Below the pieces are notes generated by a model. The model had not been told where the DNA came from and searched no databases. It saw nothing but the letters and a program-made list of their open reading frames with translations. Position numbers and translations under genes: made by a program. Shown in pieces: positions 5,383 through 31,462 of a stretch of 32,000 bases of DNA (within the stretch, counting starts at the first letter, position 1; each line of letters begins with the position of its first letter). Origin of the DNA: Candidatus Heimdallarchaeota archaeon (GTDB lineage Archaea; Asgardarchaeota; Wukongarchaeia; Wukongarchaeales; JBHIFL01); NCBI GenBank assembly GCA_046761065.1, contig JBHIFL010000019.1, forward strand, positions 1 to 32,000, written 5' to 3'.

Positions 5383-5886
5383 ATGAAGAATAAACGGACC
5401 ATCCGAACAACGAGAACTCAGCGAAAGAAACCAAAGTTTCAACGTCCAGATAGTTGGAAGCTCCAGCGGCTTAAAGCCAGTTGGCGTCGCCCACAAGGAA
5501 TTGATAACAAGATTAGGAAACAAAAGAAGGGATATCCACCAAAAGTAAAATCCGGCTATCGAAGTCCATCTAGGAGTAGGAACCTGCACCCTTCGGGTTT
5601 TGCGGAGGTTCTCATCTATTCCCCTCAAGAATTAGCCCTTATTGACCGAAAAAAGCAAATAGTCAGTATTGCCAGCACGATAGGAGCTCGAAAGAAAACA
5701 AAAATTCTAGAAAGAGCGAGAGAATGGGCAATTAGGATTACCAACCCAGGAATGGGCCCAAGAGCTCTCGAAGAGGAATTAGAGCTGGAATTTAGCGAAG
5801 AAGAGTTAGAAGCCCTCGAAGAGTTGGAGGCTCTCGAAGAGAGCGAAGAAGATGTTAAAGCACGGGAAGAAGAACAAGAAGAATAA
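5383..5886 (+). CDS. rpl32e: 50S ribosomal protein eL32 with a long acidic C-terminal extension
   Basis: KPKFQRPDSWKLQRLKASWRRPQGIDNKIRKQKKGYPPKVKSGYRSP is the eL32 core. The C-terminal ~45 aa are E/L-rich (EEELELEFSEEELEALEELEALEESEEDVKAREEEQEE). Confidence 0.9.
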   Translation: MKNKRTIRTTRTQRKKPKFQRPDSWKLQRLKASWRRPQGIDNKIRKQKKGYPPKVKSGYRSPSRSRNLHPSGFAEVLIYSPQELALIDRKKQIVSIASTIGARKKTKILERAREWAIRITNPGMGPRALEEELELEFSEEELEALEELEALEESEEDVKAREEEQEE

Positions 5887-7001: not shown

Positions 7002-7690
7002 ATGAGCTTTAGAAGACGAAAACCCCCGAGAATGCCAACTGAAAAAAAAGAATGGGTTCCAAAAACACGATTAGGACGTCTAGTGCAAGAGGGGGATATT
7101 AGTTCCATTGAAGAAATATTTCAACACCACTATCGGATTGCAGAACCCGAAATCGTCGATACGCTGATGCCAAACCTAGAAGAAGAAGTGGTTAACATCA
7201 GCCTTGTGCAGAGAAGCTGTTATGCCTGATTGACAACCAGCTCTGTAAACAAACTGACGCGGGACGAAAGTCGCGATTTAAATCCGTCGTGGTGGTTGGA
7301 AACCGTGATGGATATGTTGGTGTAGCCGAAGGCAAAGCCAAAGAAGTTGGCCCCGCCATCCGAATCGGCATCGCTCGAGCTAAGACGCAACTGACCCCCA
7401 TTCGGAGAGGGTGTGGAAGTTGGGAATGTTCATGTCATGAACTGCATTCCGTACCATTTAAGGTAACTGGGAGATGTGGTAGTACACGAGTTAAAATAAT
7501 CCCTGCCCCAAAAGGGTTAGGTCTGGTCATTGGGGAAAATGCAAAAGCGGTTCTACGTCTGGCGGGAATTGAAGATGCTTGGACTCAAACCTTTGGTGAA
7601 ACCCGGACAACAACCAATTACGTTAAGGCCACAGTTGATGCTTTAAAACAAACATATCGAGTTGTGCATCCAAGGGATTGGATTCGATAG
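7002..7690 (+). CDS. rps5: 30S ribosomal protein uS5, reading frame interrupted near 7214-7250 (two colinear ORFs, 7002-7229 and 7289-7690 in the ORF track)
   Basis: The 5' ORF reads ...[24 protein letters not shown]...[12 protein letters not shown], then SCYA-stop. The other frame is open from at least 7199 and reads [34 protein letters not shown]...RRGCGSWEC...PAPKGLGLV. Together these give a complete uS5 once ~32-35 nt are skipped. Confidence 0.85.
7215..7249 (+). other. candidate intervening sequence in rps5 (35 nt as drawn; a 32 nt alternative also restores the frame; exact borders unresolved)
   Basis: Deleting 7215-7249 joins cag aga | caa act gac, giving VQR-QTDAGRK. The flanks are complementary: cagag 7209-7213 with ctctg 7241-7245, gctg 7216-7219 with cagc 7238-7241, ttgt 7204-7207 with acaa 7249-7252. 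Confidence 0.45.
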
Positions 7691-7728
7691 ACCTTCCATA
7701 CCAGTTACAAAAATATCTAGTATTCTAG

Positions 7729-7759
7729 GAAAGACCACTTTCTTAAGAAAGTGGCTTTC
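7729..7759 (+). terminator. strong hairpin about 40 nt downstream of rps5 (contains a perfect 20-nt palindrome, 7735-7754)
   Basis: gaaag-a-ccactttcttaagaaagtgg-ctttc: up to 8 bp around the ttaa centre of the palindrome, plus 5 outer bp with one bulged A. It lies in a 219-nt spacer before rpl30. A terminator or regulatory role is only inferred. Confidence 0.3.
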
Positions 7760-7909
7760 ATGAAATTCATTAACTCACTAGGTAATTTATACGATTTAAA
7801 CCCTGCCCAAATACATCCTAGTAAAAAAAAGGACAGTCAGAAATTTAAACGTAATAGAAACCTTCACCCTTCAATAATTTAAAGAAAGAAGCTCCCGAAG
7901 GTGAATTAA

Positions 7910-8410
7910 ATGCCAAAGACTAGTAAAAGAGAAACTCCAACCAACCTTCTTGCCGTGATCCGAGTCCGAGGTCGCGTAGATGTTCGACCGGAGGTAAAAC
8001 ATACCCTATCCCTACTTAGATTACACAAACCAAATCATTGTGTCCTTGTGAAAAATGAAACCCCGATACAGGGTATGTTGCAAGTTGCAAAGGATTGGAT
8101 CACTTGGGGAGAAATTAATAGAGACAATCTGGAAAAATTGCTGAAAAAACGGGCTTATCTATCGGAAGGTCAAAAAGGGTTATCAGAGGAGTACGTAAAA
8201 GAAAACACTTCTCATGAGAGTATGTCTGACTTAATCGAAGCGTTACTTGCAACCAAAAATACTATAAAAGAGATCAAAGGACTGAAGCCAGTCTTCAGGC
8301 TTAATCCCCCAAGAAAGGGGTATTCAGGAGTAAAAAACGCGTATACTAAAGGCGGAGCACTTGGATACCGGGGAAAGGCAATAAATGAGCTTCTTCGGCA
8401 AATGATTTGA
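7910..8410 (+). CDS. rpl30: 50S ribosomal protein uL30
   Basis: LLAVIRVRGRVDVRPEVKHTLSLLRLHKPNHCVLV...PVFRLNPPRKGY...GGALGYRG; operon position after uS5. Confidence 0.9.
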   Translation: MPKTSKRETPTNLLAVIRVRGRVDVRPEVKHTLSLLRLHKPNHCVLVKNETPIQGMLQVAKDWITWGEINRDNLEKLLKKRAYLSEGQKGLSEEYVKENTSHESMSDLIEALLATKNTIKEIKGLKPVFRLNPPRKGYSGVKNAYTKGGALGYRGKAINELLRQMI

Positions 8411-8514
8411 AGTTTAAATAATAGAAATTAAGAAATGGATAATTCAAAACGTTTAGAACTGCTTAACACCTAATGCTCTTAACGTCTTTTAAATTTGATT
8501 TGTGTAAGAGGGTC

Positions 8515-9024
8515 CTAGGAGGATTTTTCTTTCAGAACCCGCTCATAAACTGTTTTTACCCGATCAGCAACAGGACCTGTTCCGTCTACTCCTTTTTCGG
8601 TTACTTTAACCCGCTCTAATACCATAATAATACCATTATCTAGATCGAGGCGAACCCCTCCTTTGGGAAATATCCGGGCAAGTTCATCAGCCAGACCCAC
8701 GAGATCAAAGGGTTCTTCCTCCAAAGCAATTTCAGATACTCTTGAACCTGAAATAAAGACTTTGTGGAACGTTTCATTCTTTGCCACTGCCTTATCAAGG
8801 CAAATACTTAATGTCCCAGGGTGATAACCTTGAAGACGTCCAATATATACTTTGTTCTCAGTGGATACCCTAACTAACTTCCCAATAAGCCGAGACAACT
8901 CTCGTTGAAATGCCCGCATAGCAGCACTTTCACTCATTAATTCAAGGAACCTCCTCACCGCCATATCTTGCCAAAAACCAATTTTAGGAACTAAATAGCG
9001 GCATCTATCTTTTATTGCCTCCAA
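8515..9024 (-). CDS. Sm-like (LSm) domain protein with an ~80 aa C-terminal extension
   Basis: LIGKLVRVSTENKVYIGRLQGYHPGTLSICLDKA (Sm1-like) and HKVFISGSRVSEIAL (Sm2-like). TTG start at 9024; internal ATG alternatives exist. Confidence 0.55.
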   Translation of the reverse strand: MEAIKDRCRYLVPKIGFWQDMAVRRFLELMSESAAMRAFQRELSRLIGKLVRVSTENKVYIGRLQGYHPGTLSICLDKAVAKNETFHKVFISGSRVSEIALEEEPFDLVGLADELARIFPKGGVRLDLDNGIIMVLERVKVTEKGVDGTGPVADRVKTVYERVLKEKSS

Positions 9025-9366: not shown

Positions 9367-10086
9367 TTAAATATAAATTCGTCGAAGGTCGCTCGGTTCT
9401 CCTTTATCTTCTTGACTTTGCAATCGTGTCTCTTCTAACTCTCTTTCAATTCGCGCCGCATCCTCAATAAGACGCGTAGTATCAACATCTACTCCGATGA
9501 ATCTTGTAAGATCCTTAATAACCACTGATGCCGCAAAGGGATCCGGTCGTATAGGATCTGCATAGGCGAGTATTGCGATTGCGGGTATACCCCTTAGCTC
9601 ACAAAAACCCAATGTGAGAGCTAAAGGACCTGCCACTAAGAGACCAGGTTCTAATAAAGCCGTTTTAAAGGAAACTCCTTCATTTGGAAACTTCGAAGTA
9701 GGAACATAGCGAATATCGCCTTGGGATACTTTTTTTAATCTAGCATCTACCCCTCCTGCAAGAAAGACCCGTCGAAAGCCCACTTCGCTGATCCAATCGA
9801 CTAACGACTCTACAAATTGATGTTGATGTTGATAAGGTTGAAAATGGGTTACAAGGGAGATCAAATTTTCCTTTGCATATATTTCGAAAGGAAATACAAT
9901 CATTCGCCCTTTCAAAGAGATGAAAGGTGGGAAACCATCTTCGGGAATAACGACCCCAATCCTTTTAGCTCCAGTTTCTTCGCCAATATGCCGTACAACG
10001 AGATATCCGACTCGTCCAAGTCCATGAAAACCTACCAAAAAATCTTTCCCTTGAAACTTTTCTTCTATATCAAAAATAAATTGCAA
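9367..10086 (-). CDS. PAC2-family proteasome assembly chaperone-like protein
   Basis: ~239 aa with LVGFHGLGRVGYLVVRHI near the N-terminus, ...GLLVAGPLAL..., and an acidic helical tail. Pattern recalled for archaeal PAC2/DUF75 proteins, not verified by search. Confidence 0.55.
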   Translation of the reverse strand: MQFIFDIEEKFQGKDFLVGFHGLGRVGYLVVRHIGEETGAKRIGVVIPEDGFPPFISLKGRMIVFPFEIYAKENLISLVTHFQPYQHQHQFVESLVDWISEVGFRRVFLAGGVDARLKKVSQGDIRYVPTSKFPNEGVSFKTALLEPGLLVAGPLALTLGFCELRGIPAIAILAYADPIRPDPFAASVVIKDLTRFIGVDVDTTRLIEDAARIERELEETRLQSQEDKGEPSDLRRIYI

Positions 10087-10405
10087 TTTGCATTCACCTT
10101 TATTATATTTCTAGGGGAAGACACTACTCTTGTAGTGGTGATAAGTCCCGTTAGACTAAAGATGGTTGGTTCTCTTCATATACCTGTGGATACCCTCCTT
10201 ATTTTCCAGTCATTTCCTTGTTATAACTCTACACTCAAAATTTATCCCCAATTCTTCTCTTTATTCTAAGATATATGCTCCTTCGGCTCTTTTCTCCTGC
10301 TACTACATAGCTACTACAAATCGGGCTTCTAATACGCTACTTTGCTTTGGTGAGAAGGTGAATGGTGCTTTCATTATGCAACCACTAGATCATTAAGGAA
10401 CTCAA

Positions 10406-11341
10406 GTGAACTATTCCATCCTTAGGGACGGAGCTTCTCCCATCGCGTTATGAGTTCCATTTTATGCGAAATTTGCTGTGGGGGATCGGGATGGGTTCAC
10501 GGCCGCCCTATCTCGTAGGATATGCCCAAAAAGCCTGTTCAGAATATTTCACGCCCCATTCAGGTCGGCGTTATAATCTAACCCACAGGCACAGGGGAAT
10601 TGCCTCTTGGTTCATAGGTCTTTAGTGCGACAACAACGACTTAGCTGGGAACTGTAGGCTTCATTCATGAGGAGCCCCAGAATGTCTTCCCACAAGGCTG
10701 GATATGCGATCTCGGTGTTGATTTGGAACGAGGGCATGGGATGAAGGTAGCGATTATTCTTCTGACATCAGCGTGTTCCTTACCTCCATGGGATCTCGTG
10801 GTTCTTCAAGTCGTTGACAACGATTATTACCTGGTATGTGTCCTCCCTGAGTTCTTTTACTTTGTCCATTAAGGGAGAAATGATAGGATGTCCATTGAAA
10901 TATGTCGCCGGGGATCCACTGATATGGATTGATTCCAAAAGTTGATAAACTTCCTCGAGGTAGAACATGAATGGTTGAAACAATATTCAATGCACTACAT
11001 GACCCTCTGCACCATACCTTCTTTTCGGATCGAATTCCAATTGGAATATAAAACCCAGAGGGAATGTCTCCTTCTCTTCATGAATGAGTCCAATACTTCC
11101 CATCGAAGCCACCTGTACAAGGCTAAAGATGTATGCGCGAAGAGACAATTGCACTATGTCTGTGTCTTGGAATATAATGCGAATTTGAATAGCGCGTAGA
11201 ATATCCTCAACTGGCCTATCAGGTATATCATGCGAGATAGAACCACTCTAAATCTGTACAGAACCCCAAAACGAACATAGGTTTAGATAAGGCACAATTA
11301 ATGATGAGGAAAGCTCCTTCCCTCGGAGTGGAGTAGTTCAC
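10406..11341 (-). mobile_element. decayed TnpB-type (IS200/IS605 OrfB-like RuvC/zinc-ribbon nuclease) element remnant bounded by imperfect ~31-bp inverted repeats
   Basis: Minus-strand fragments in different frames: YQVIIVVNDLKNHE (RuvC-II-like, E replaced by N), EAYSSQLSRCCRTKD (like YTSQxCSxCG), and RQFPCACGLDYNADLNGA-TGA-NILNR (like FxCxxCGxxxDRDxNAAxNIL, with an in-frame TGA at 10549-10551). Ends: 10406-10436 gtgaactattccatccttagggacggagctt versus the reverse complement of 11311-11341, 24/31 identical. Confidence 0.55.
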
Positions 11342-11418
11342 ACTATCAAATACCCGATAAAAAAGTATTAAAAACCTCTTTAATCATTCCATCCTAGCCA
11401 TGAGATAACTATTCCTAA

Positions 11419-11593
11419 GCGGGGGTCTCCGAGCCAGGTCAACGCTCAGATCTACCGAGTGGCCTATAAGGAGCAGGACTGTCCATTTCCAATCTGGAAA
11501 GATAAGGGTCTAGAGGCTCCTGTGTGGTAGCACTTCGAGGGTTCAAAAAGAAAATAAAAAAATCTTTTCTGGAAAATCCCTCCCCCCGCACCA
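11419..11593 (+). tRNA. tRNA-Leu(GAG), class II, 175 nt gene with three intervening sequences (D-arm ~26 nt, anticodon loop 32 nt, T-loop ~29 nt); CCA encoded
   Basis: Acceptor gcggggg 11419-25 pairs with cccccgc 11583-89, followed by A73 and cca. D stem tcc 11428-30 / gga 11470-72. Anticodon stem cagga 11474-78 / tcctg 11518-22. The loop is ct + gaggc after removing 11481-11512, giving anticodon GAG with G37. Variable arm tgtggtagcacttc. T stem gaggg 11537-41 / ccctc 11578-82, with ttcaaa...t split by 11548-11576. Confidence 0.75.
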
Positions 11594-11887
11594 TTACATA
11601 CCCATCACAAGAAATCTCATAGATTATTTTTTCATTTTTGAATAATCAATTAATCAAGTAGTGAACTATAGAGAATTTATTCGAGGCATTTATTTGGCAA
11701 TTGAGTATTATTAAATTTTTTAAAAAGCATTTTATTTTCAGATAACTCGGTCACTTGGGAGAGAAATTTAATAGGTTAAATGGGTCAGAATAGACTTTTA
11801 ACAAATTATTTTATGCGAATGAGCTATTATTCGTGTAGTAAGAAAATATTCGAGGGTAAAAGTCTCATATTTTATTTAGGGGTATGC

Positions 11888-16074: not shown

Positions 16075-16180
16075 TGGTGCCCCGTGGGGGATTTTCCCCG
16101 AAACACACAATGTTTCGATTTTGAACCCCCGTCGCGAGATCGAGAGTCTCGCATGCTTGACCGTGCTACACCAACGGGGC
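16075..16180 (-). tRNA. tRNA-Glu(CUC) with a 28-nt T-loop intron; CCA encoded
   Basis: Minus strand: gccccgt tg gtgtagcacggtcaagcat g cgaga ctctcga tctcg cgac ggggg ttcaaa [atcgaaacattgtgtgtttcggggaaaa] t ccccc acggggc a cca. The intron is plus-strand 16092-16119 and contains a 7-bp hairpin cgaaaca/tgtttcg. Confidence 0.8.
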
Positions 16181-21891: not shown

Positions 21892-22983
21892 TTATTTGAC
21901 AATGTTATAAGTATCTTTCAAAGGATTATCTCTGACCTCCTCCCCACCCTGAAGGGTTGAGGGTTCCGAGTTCGCTCGCGTTCGGGGCGGTGCCTCCTTG
22001 GGGGGATGAGTGCTCCCCTCGCATCTACCTCTTTTTGCATGCGATTGAGCAATACTTGGACGGCCTGTGATATTGAACGCCGCATTCACATCCGCATGCC
22101 CAAGCTGTCCACACTGGGGACAAAAGAACGCTTTCTCATTTCGAGTGCCTAGGTGTCCACACCGGCTACACGTTTGCGAAGTATAGACAGGATCAACATA
22201 GATGACGGGGATTTTTAGCAGCTTGGCTTTGTATTCTATCATCTGTTGGAGTTGATAGAACGACCAACTGTGCAAGGAATAGAGAAATGAGCGCGTTGAT
22301 TTGGCGGTTTGGCGAACCCCATTTAATTGTTCCATTTTTAAGCCGAGCTTGCTGAGCTAGAGTCATGCGTTTTCGGCTGATTTTATGGTTCGTGTCCCGC
22401 ATGATCCGCCGCTCGCGATCCTTGACCTTCTTGACCAGTTTGTAGGCTCCAGCTTTCTGCAGCTTCTTCCGGTGGTTCTAGTATTTCTTGTGGATATGCT
22501 CGCATTTTTTGCCGAGTTTCCATCTTTTCCTGTCGTAGGATTGGCAAACACCGCGAAATGTCCTGTAGTGTTGAGATCTACCCCAAGATAGCCCTTCGGC
22601 TACATAGGGGGTTGTTCAGGAATGGTCACTGCCACATAGATGTAGGTGTCCCCTACCTCAATTTGGTTAATCTTCTCAAAATGGTTAGGGAACTCCTAGT
22701 GGGAGGAGAACTTCAAGCAAGGTACTCGAATGAGCCGCTGGGCTTAATCCCCTTTAATCCCTTGATTGGGAATGGTCAATTTAACCGACGGCACCCGTTT
22801 GATGGTTTTATTTCGCCCATATTTCCACAAAATTTGGTTGGCAATCATAGACTTGAGTCCCAAATGCTTGACGTCTTTCTAGGAGAAGATACGATGTTTA
22901 AGGGTAAATACCGCCACTTGCCGGGCTTTGCGAAGGTCTTTCGAGAAGTCCCAGGTATGTTTAGCTTTGTAGGTGAGAATCAT
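21892..22983 (-). pseudogene. tnpB: tnpB (RNA-guided RuvC nuclease family) pseudogene
   Basis: Own translation from ATG 22983: MILTYKAKHTWDF... with in-frame stops TAG 22879-81, TAA 22744-46, TAG 22696-98 and TAG 22600-02. It continues YLGVDLNTTGHFAV (RuvC-I), has a frameshift in the ggaaaaga run near 22525, a further TAG, and a second frameshift near 22340. The 3' ORF keeps SWSFYQL...[15 protein letters not shown]...[20 protein letters not shown]. Confidence 0.85.
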
Positions 22984-31231: not shown

Positions 31232-31462
31232 ATGAATATCGTGATTCTCTCCTCGATTGCTACCTATTTAAGAGCGGCGGTTACCCCGGGATCATCCCTA
31301 CCCCGGAAACCAGGTCGCCCTCCCTTTGATCGGGGCTCGATGCTCTGTGCCTTTGTGTTCAAAGCCCTCCTTGGTCTTCGGTCAGAGAGTGCCCTCCATC
31401 GGGAATTGACCCGGAATCCCCTGCTCCGGGAGTTCTACATCGTGGGCAAATTAATTCTTTAA
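31232..31462 (+). pseudogene. N-terminal fragment of an IS5/IS4-type transposase (DUF772-like), truncated
   Basis: GRPPFDRGSMLCAFVFKALLGLRSESALHRELTRNPLLREF resembles the GRPxxD...LxxxxGLSxRxLxxxLxxNxxxRxFCG N-terminal domain. No DDE domain follows. It lies in a visibly GC-rich ~260 bp patch (31190-31450). Confidence 0.5.

Follow-up and report, generated by a model that had tools for sequence, protein, structure and literature searches.

The Interrupted uS5 Gene

How does an archaeon obtain a complete copy of an essential ribosomal protein from a gene whose reading frame is broken within its most conserved motif? This question is raised by the gene of ribosomal protein uS5 (rps5) on contig JBHIFL010000019.1 (GenBank assembly GCA_046761065.1, Candidatus Heimdallarchaeota archaeon), of which positions 1 to 32,000 were analysed; this whole stretch of 32,000 nucleotides (nt) is called the window here. 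Comparison with related loci suggests that the insert, which lies in the VQRQTD codons of uS5 in Heimdall-type Asgard archaea, is very probably an intron of the bulge–helix–bulge (BHB) class, that is, a substrate of the tRNA-splicing endonuclease EndA. A first-pass annotation of the window had proposed that the insert is removed from the RNA as a candidate BHB-type mRNA intron and had listed an assembly error, a frameshift, a split gene and translational bypass as alternatives. Its central reading is supported by the comparative evidence described below, while each of the listed alternatives is contradicted by the comparison of variants or by tests on the sequence.

The 5′ open reading frame (ORF) of uS5 occupies 7002–7229 on the + strand. 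It begins with ATG 7002, reads ...NISLVQR and then passes through SCYA to the TGA stop at 7227–7229. The second frame, that of position 7250, is open through the junction and ends at the stop at 7688–7690, and both the interruption at VQR and this open frame are as annotated at first. When the two halves are joined, the product matches solved archaeal and eukaryotic uS5 proteins from end to end with E = 1e-71, and the part before the junction corresponds by homology to their first 70 residues. Excision of 7215–7249 yields VQRQTDAGRK in frame, and excision of 7216–7247 (32 nt) is likewise in frame with an extra lysine in the product; these two products had been given correctly. The gene is partitioned as follows, where the 3′ boundary of exon 1 is uncertain by ~2 nt owing to the A/G-rich junction.

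7002..7213, + strand: uS5 exon 1, running from ATG 7002 to ..GUG CAG AG, where the final AG begins the Arg codon
7214..7248, + strand: predicted intron, a hairpin of 35 nt that holds the in-frame TGA 7227–7229
7249..7690, + strand: uS5 exon 2, beginning A CAA ACU GAC ..., with its stop at 7688–7690

Gene callers report two uS5 ORFs at this place, of 75 and 133 amino acids (aa). The NCBI protein accessions are MFQ6124280 for uL6 and MFQ6124284 for uL30, and only three numbers are left between them for eL32, eL19 and uL18, so that the annotation of the deposited metagenome-assembled genome (MAG) apparently contains no uS5 protein.

Recurrence of the Insert and Selection on the Exons

The variants were collected by fetching contigs that encode uS5 fragments and by scanning JGI metagenomes with a DNA pattern. 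An alignment of relatives' rps5 loci, which had been proposed in the first-pass annotation, places the same interruption at the identical site in more than 20 contigs, which stem from numerous samples and assemblers (NCBI MAGs, ENA, Logan and JGI). The insert occurs in 12 distinct sequences, all of them flanked by GTGCAGAGA and CAAAC(Y)GA. Their lengths are given below, with our handles for the related loci.

34 nt: L025
35 nt: the window, L010, L012, L026 and L028
36 nt: L021
42 nt: L020
43 nt: L018 and L024
44 nt: L022 and L031

Divided by three, the lengths of 34–44 nt thus leave every possible remainder. At 36 and 42 nt the frame is preserved, yet the insert contains an in-frame TAA. When the segment between GTGCAGAGA and CAAAC is removed, an intact uS5 (...VQRQTDAGRK...) results in every contig of sufficient length. 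The insert diverges fast in its interior and is conserved at both ends; changes in the exons are almost all synonymous. The first 13 codons of exon 2 differ from those of relatives at 4–8 nt, and all of these differences but one are synonymous. In 8 of the 10 variants, the frame of exon 2 contains no ATG, GTG or TTG between the preceding stop and exon 2, and the first possible internal start in that frame, GTG 7289, lies downstream of the 13 conserved codons. Judged from these substitutions, purifying selection acts on both uS5 exons.

A search with the spliced protein returned 4,473 uS5 homologues from a collection of 5.8 billion proteins. The best full-length homologues are 64–66% identical and come from Heimdall-, Baldr-, Bathy- and Wukong-archaeal MAGs. 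No intact uS5 of more than 66% identity was found among the 5.8 billion proteins, in which several MAGs of the clade are represented. Closer matches, at 79–98% identity, are fragments only (for example, 133 aa at 98% and 172 aa at 90%), and the 90% cluster of the window's own uS5 fragment has 12 members. Searching with exon 1 gave seven protein clusters, all consisting of short ORFs of 75–99 aa that end in ...ISLVQRS followed by a variable tail. Neither the sequence nor the length of these tails after VQR is conserved (SCYA, SCGA, SFGA, SWDV, SRGV, SQGV, SRSVLSSYWHPAL and others). Among the contigs of representative genomes, a set from which the clade is absent, the search returned only relatives of at most 63% identity, all uninterrupted.

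RNA Structure and Choice of Register

A structure of 14 pairs was evaluated on the alignment of the 12 variants. In this structure 95% of the cells are paired, versus 24–38% when the 3′ partners are slid by 1–3 columns. Four pairs change on both sides among the 12 variants, two of them in the upper hairpin. These compensatory changes indicate that the insert is a hairpin, at the base of which the two junctions come to lie side by side. The elements of the structure, in the numbering of the window, are the following.

7208..7211, + strand: 5′ strand of the central helix H, GCAG, pairing with 7243–7246; three of the pairs are invariant
7208:7246: pair of helix H that is G·U in 10 variants, G–C in 1 and G·A in 1
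7212..7214, + strand: 5′ bulge AGA, with the predicted cut between 7213 and 7214
7215..7219, + strand: 5′ strand of the inner helix h′, AGCUG, pairing with 7238–7242
7218:7239: pair of helix h′ that is U–A in 6 variants and C–G in 6
7219:7238: pair of helix h′ that is G–C in 8 variants, G·U in 2, A–U in 1 and U·U in 1
7238..7242, + strand: 3′ strand of the inner helix h′, CAGCU, covarying
7243..7246, + strand: 3′ strand of the central helix H, CUGU
7247..7249, + strand: 3′ bulge AAA, with the predicted cut between 7248 and 7249; no conserved outer helix closes this bulge

The inner helix has 4–6 base pairs (bp) across the variants and covaries. A 3-4-3 BHB core, namely a 4-bp helix between two opposite 3-nt bulges, is present in 11 of the 12 variants, the exception being L025. 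Cuts between the second and third bulge nucleotides, as described for cbf5 introns (PMC2738675), would give VQRQTDAGRK for each of the 12 variants and each of the six insert lengths, with no gap relative to the uS5 family. By this core and this cut rule the uS5 insert fits a BHB intron as far as its sequence can tell, in the relaxed class only: as the outer helix h has 0 bp, the motif is of the relaxed HBh′ type and not of the strict hBHBh′ type. The register that excises 35 nt lies within 0.3 kcal/mol of the minimum free energy (MFE) in most of the relatives.

The same kind of intron could be cut in a second register, which the first-pass annotation had preferred, noting that the strict 4-bp register gives 33 nt and does not restore the frame. 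In that model a 5-bp helix CAGAG/CUCUG is flanked by the bulges AAG and UAA, and cuts between 7215 and 7216 and between 7247 and 7248 remove 32 nt. The in-frame register GCAG/CUGU, which excises 7214–7248 with a 4-bp helix, had been missed. All the pairings listed at first do exist (ttgt 7204–07 with acaa 7249–52, cagag 7209–13 with ctctg 7241–45 and ctg 7217–19 with cag 7238–40), the 32-nt register is also in frame, and 100% of the cells of its 5-bp helix are paired. Moreover, the change of 7246 from U to A in L025 is harmless in a bulge of the 32-nt model and breaks a pair in the 35-nt model. Against it, the motif is defined by a spacing of 4 bp (PMC5829648), to which the 5-bp helix does not conform, and the structure is worse than that of the 35-nt register by 0.5–9 kcal/mol in 11 of the 11 variants tested. 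The outer helix UUGU/ACAA (7204–07 with 7249–52) on which it draws contains a C·A mismatch in 7 of 9 variants. In L028/L029, the change of 7246 from U to C turns G7208:C7246 into a Watson–Crick pair, as expected if the pair of the 35-nt register forms.

The protein family bears on the same choice. The extra lysine of the 32-nt product forces a one-residue gap in the alignments with the four best solved uS5 proteins (VQ-KQTDAG, VQR-QTHAG, VQR-MTDSG), and the closest full-length homologues have LVQRQTDAG or LVQRQSDAG at this place. The family motif has no added residue, and removal of 35 nt is therefore favoured over that of 32 nt. Taken together, the 32-nt register is unlikely and, within the EndA-type reading, we regard excision of 35 nt as distinctly more probable than that of 32 nt. 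The spliced junction predicted for the 35-nt excision is ..GUGCAGAG joined to ACAAAC.., or CTYGTGCAGAGACAAACYGA over a longer span, and that for the 32-nt excision is GTGCAGAGAAAACAAAC. The circular intron should carry the junction ...CUCUGUAA joined to AAGCUG..., and the predicted protein span over the splice junction is ..NISLVQRQTDAGRK...

Several observations weigh against an EndA-type intron or against its 35-nt register. The fold of the window at the junction has an MFE of −17.1 kcal/mol, with a z-score of −0.2 versus shuffles, and the + strand of the window contains 609 relaxed BHB-like motifs (a 4-bp helix with an inner helix of 5 bp or more). From this count the chance per specific cut-site pair is ~1.7e-4, and simple arithmetic gives ~7e-4 for a motif on one of the four frame-restoring excisions of 35 nt. 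The strict hBHBh′ form is not attained, with 0 bp of outer helix in the in-frame register, and the UUGU/ACAA helix offers itself as a substitute only with the mismatch described above. A conserved outer helix between the exons was sought among the variants and none was found; a long-range pairing GCCUCGU/GCGGGGC appears in some MFE folds, without covariation. The junction CAGAGAAG/CUCUGU can slip, with three overlapping 4-bp registers in every variant; those of the window excise 35, 33 and 31 nt, and 35 nt alone is in frame. In L025, the most divergent variant, the in-frame register has a G·A mismatch and an out-of-frame register is perfect. Genes for EndA and the ligase RtcB were found neither in the window nor in the flanks that were fetched, and the type of the host enzyme is taken from the literature. 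The fold of a single sequence is thus unremarkable, and the weight of the comparison rests on the variants, their variable lengths and the compensatory changes.

The tRNA-Glu Intron of the Same Window

An internal control for the cut rule is provided by a tRNA gene of the same window. ARAGORN reported no tRNA in the whole window by default, with introns allowed in the anticodon loop or with lowered thresholds. Rfam gave no tRNA at gathering thresholds or at E ≤ 1 for the window, nor at E ≤ 10 for two sub-regions, and a home-made scan of the window for T-arm and acceptor sequences found none either. Only after candidate BHB introns were excised in silico did ARAGORN find tRNA-Glu(CUC).

16075..16180, − strand: tRNA-Glu(CUC) with encoded CCA; its 28-nt intron, 16119–16092, lies in the T-loop (position 59/60)

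In the motif of this intron the T-stem of 5 bp serves as the outer helix, the bulges are AAA and AAU, and the inner helix has 9 bp. The central helix UUCA/GGAA has three of four pairs, with an A·G mismatch beside the bulge. A cut after the second bulge nucleotide gives a normal T-loop of 7 nt, UUCAAAU. In the host, processing of this non-canonical intron, with its A-rich bulges and its imperfect central helix, must therefore follow the cut rule put forward here for rps5. It had been claimed at first that both tRNAs of the window carry non-canonical introns; this holds for the T-loop intron of tRNA-Glu(CUC), while the second tRNA was not found in the window, even after every single deletion of 11–69 nt had been tried across it.

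Proposed Processing and Alternative Explanations

In the mechanism that we propose, the rps5 pre-mRNA would fold such that the hairpin base AGCUG/CAGCU stacks on a helix formed by GCAG, at the end of exon 1, and CUGU, at the 3′ end of the intron. EndA, which we infer to be of the broad-specificity (αβ)2 type, would cut between 7213 and 7214 and between 7248 and 7249. A ligase of the RtcB type would then join the exons to ..CAG AG/A CAA.. (the slash marks the joint), encoding ..VQRQTDAGRK... On unspliced rps5 mRNA translation would stop after 75 residues, and full-length uS5 would be made from spliced mRNA only. In Asgard archaea EndA is reported to be of the (αβ)2 type, with an L1 loop giving broad specificity, and relaxed HBh′ and hBH motifs are substrates of such broad-specificity enzymes (PMC5829648).

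Next to the choice of register, the alternatives do without splicing altogether. In translational bypass, ribosomes would leave the mRNA near the Arg codon and resume 34–44 nt farther downstream, the hairpin being a take-off structure, and no RNA would be processed. A conserved hairpin does follow the take-off region directly, and a variable length of the gap would be tolerable in principle. The short untranslated hairpin gap in a coding sequence also recalls gene 60 of phage T4. Unlike gene 60, rps5 was found on testing to have no matched take-off and landing codons and no stop directly after take-off: AGA 7212–14 would need to re-pair with AAA 7247–49, the sole matching pair (CAG 7209–11 with CAA 7250–52) would delete two conserved residues, and the codon after take-off is AGC, with the stop four codons on. 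The junction, moreover, fits the BHB cut rule that is used by the tRNA-Glu of the same genome. Bypassing is not known in archaea, and we hold it to be very improbable here.

A split uS5 would consist of a 75-residue N-terminal piece and a C-terminal piece that starts at GTG 7289 or arises by termination–reinitiation. Split genes occur in some archaea, and the 75-aa and 133-aa ORFs of the gene callers are just these pieces. The 13 codons upstream of GTG 7289 are nevertheless conserved at the protein level, and 8 of the 10 variants have no in-frame start ahead of them; as they lie upstream of any possible start, these codons must be translated, and they are reachable only from exon 1. The read-through tails after VQR, moreover, show no conservation and vary in length. 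A split protein is accordingly a highly unlikely explanation of this locus.

An indel introduced by assembly or sequencing, a pseudogene in decay whose functional counterpart lies elsewhere, and a programmed frameshift or stop readthrough can practically be dismissed: the NCBI numbering does hint that no uS5 protein was annotated, and one window taken alone is compatible with an indel, but the 12 variants on more than 20 independently assembled contigs speak against an artefact or a pseudogene, as do, for the latter, the purifying selection on both exons and the want of an intact homologue above 66% identity in the protein collection, and the frame change required for recoding is +1, −1 or none with in-frame stops, depending on the variant, so that no single frameshift or readthrough mechanism serves them all.

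Mobile or self-excising elements were considered as well. A group I or group II intron, with its ribozyme core of hundreds of nt, or an intein, with its in-frame protein-splicing domain, was rejected, given an insert of 34–44 nt that is out of frame or bears stops and has no Rfam match. Frameshift, readthrough, hop, reinitiation, pseudogene and insertion of a mobile element without splicing were likewise considered and rejected.

Comparison with Known Systems

The closest precedent of the proposed rps5 intron is the intron in the cbf5 pre-mRNA of Desulfurococcales and Sulfolobales, which is short, mostly of unconventional BHB form and located in the codon of the catalytic Asp; it is cut by a hetero-oligomeric EndA between the second and third bulge residues (PMC2738675). 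A study of 2020 described cbf5 as previously the sole archaeal mRNA with a BHB intron and added the 5′ untranslated region (UTR) of HVO_1309 in Haloferax volcanii, a gene whose intron was found in circular form and whose expression seems to require splicing (PMC7714728). Neither for ribosomal protein genes nor for Asgard archaea did we find a report of a BHB intron in the open-access literature.

The uS5 insert shares with the cbf5 intron the short BHB-type form within a coding sequence and the location in the most conserved motif, which is the catalytic Asp in Cbf5 and VQRQTD in uS5. The BHB is relaxed in uS5 and mostly so in cbf5, the cut rule points between the second and third bulge residues, and the intron is present in one clade and absent from its neighbours. 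Cbf5, however, is an RNA-modification enzyme of Crenarchaeota, whereas uS5 is an essential ribosomal protein and the host belongs to the Asgard archaea of Heimdall type. The cbf5 intron is backed by cDNA and by cleavage in vitro, whereas that of uS5 is predicted from sequence comparison. Three competing, overlapping registers, one of them in frame, further set the uS5 site apart from cbf5.

With the non-canonical tRNA introns of archaea that have (αβ)2 or ε2 EndA, the uS5 insert has in common the architecture of the motif, the predicted cut rule and the size range. Unlike in these, the host RNA is an mRNA, the helix between the exons is built from codons and is weak, and a cut in the wrong register would destroy the reading frame. 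Like the HVO_1309 intron, the uS5 insert would be an EndA substrate in an mRNA; it differs in its location in the coding sequence, whereas that of the euryarchaeon lies in a 5′ UTR.

A parallel outside the archaea is found in the unconventional splicing of HAC1/XBP1 mRNA in the cytoplasm, in which a short intron in the coding sequence is removed by an endonuclease and a tRNA ligase (RtcB in metazoa), with a change of the reading frame. In these eukaryotic cases the endonuclease is Ire1 and the reaction is regulated by stress, whereas for uS5 a tRNA-splicing enzyme is proposed.

Implications

If the intron is confirmed, uS5 would join crenarchaeal cbf5 as a second protein-coding family known to have an EndA-type intron in the coding sequence. 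Such an intron would be without precedent among ribosomal proteins and also among Asgard archaea, to which eukaryotes are more closely related than to any other known group. An essential and highly expressed gene of translation would then depend on the enzymes of tRNA splicing, in parallel to HAC1/XBP1. There is a practical side as well: uS5 is a standard marker in phylogenomics and in estimates of completeness, and with two fragments from the gene callers and apparently no uS5 protein in the NCBI record, it is silently lost or truncated in this clade. The site further offers a concrete substrate for tests of Asgard EndA.

It may be asked whether splicing of rps5 is a control point rather than a tolerated nuisance. 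Were uS5 made from spliced mRNA only, the production of ribosomes would be tied to the capacity of EndA and RtcB; that the cell exploits this tie is a speculative and rather doubtful idea. The three overlapping registers of 35, 33 and 31 nt could yield unproductive splicing products or could determine, like a valve, what fraction is productive. If the control-point idea is true, the lineage might carry more BHB introns in protein genes, and splicing of mRNA by tRNA enzymes might be a regular event in some Asgard archaea.

Other Features of the Window

Further interrupted genes were sought by joining ORFs over BHB-like sites throughout the window. This gave 230 joins, almost all of them fusions of neighbouring genes. 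Two candidates, with excisions at 10614–10648 and at 22535–22570, were translated and rejected, as they gave implausible proteins.

The neighbourhood of rps5 is a normal archaeal ribosomal protein cluster in the order uS3 (end), uL29, RNase P p29, uS17, uL14, uL24, eS4, uL5, uS14, uS8, uL6, eL32, eL19, uL18, uS5 and uL30. In the region 7690–8515, the spacer between uS5 and uL30 measures 220 nt, and the cluster ends after uL30, without uL15 or SecY. It is followed on the opposite strand by Lsm_C and PAC2 genes. At its other end, positions 1–120 hold a 54-nt unit, GCCCCGGCGGCAGTGGCGGCGGAAGAAGAAGTGGCCGGAGAACCCCCGGCGGAG, in tandem, which encodes an Ala/Pro/Glu-rich C-terminal tail at the end of uS3; the GC content of this repeat region is ~75%, versus ~40% for the window. 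The protein eL32 (5383–5886) has a long acidic C-terminal tail, EEELELEFSEEELEALEELEALEESEEDVKAREEEQEE. Within the otherwise tightly packed cluster, ~525 nt between RNase P p29 and uS17 (813–1338) are without a credible ORF. The gap has the same size in a relative (L026, 3818–4345) and might contain an RNA gene that has escaped recognition or a gene that is heavily interrupted.

Outside the cluster, ~1.7 kb at 10086–11780, in which the rejected join at 10614–10648 lies, are without a convincing ORF, and the equivalent gap in L026 measures 852 nt. A GC-rich stretch at 21919–22020 on the − strand gives a sub-threshold match to the HgcC family of RNAs in Rfam (27 bits versus a gathering threshold of 50, E = 4e-4 in the local search); it lies inside a 147-aa ORF (21892–22335, − strand) that may not be a real gene. 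Finally, a GC-rich patch (~60–66%) at 31250–31440 has strong self-complementarity, matches no Rfam family and overlaps an ORF of 76 aa.

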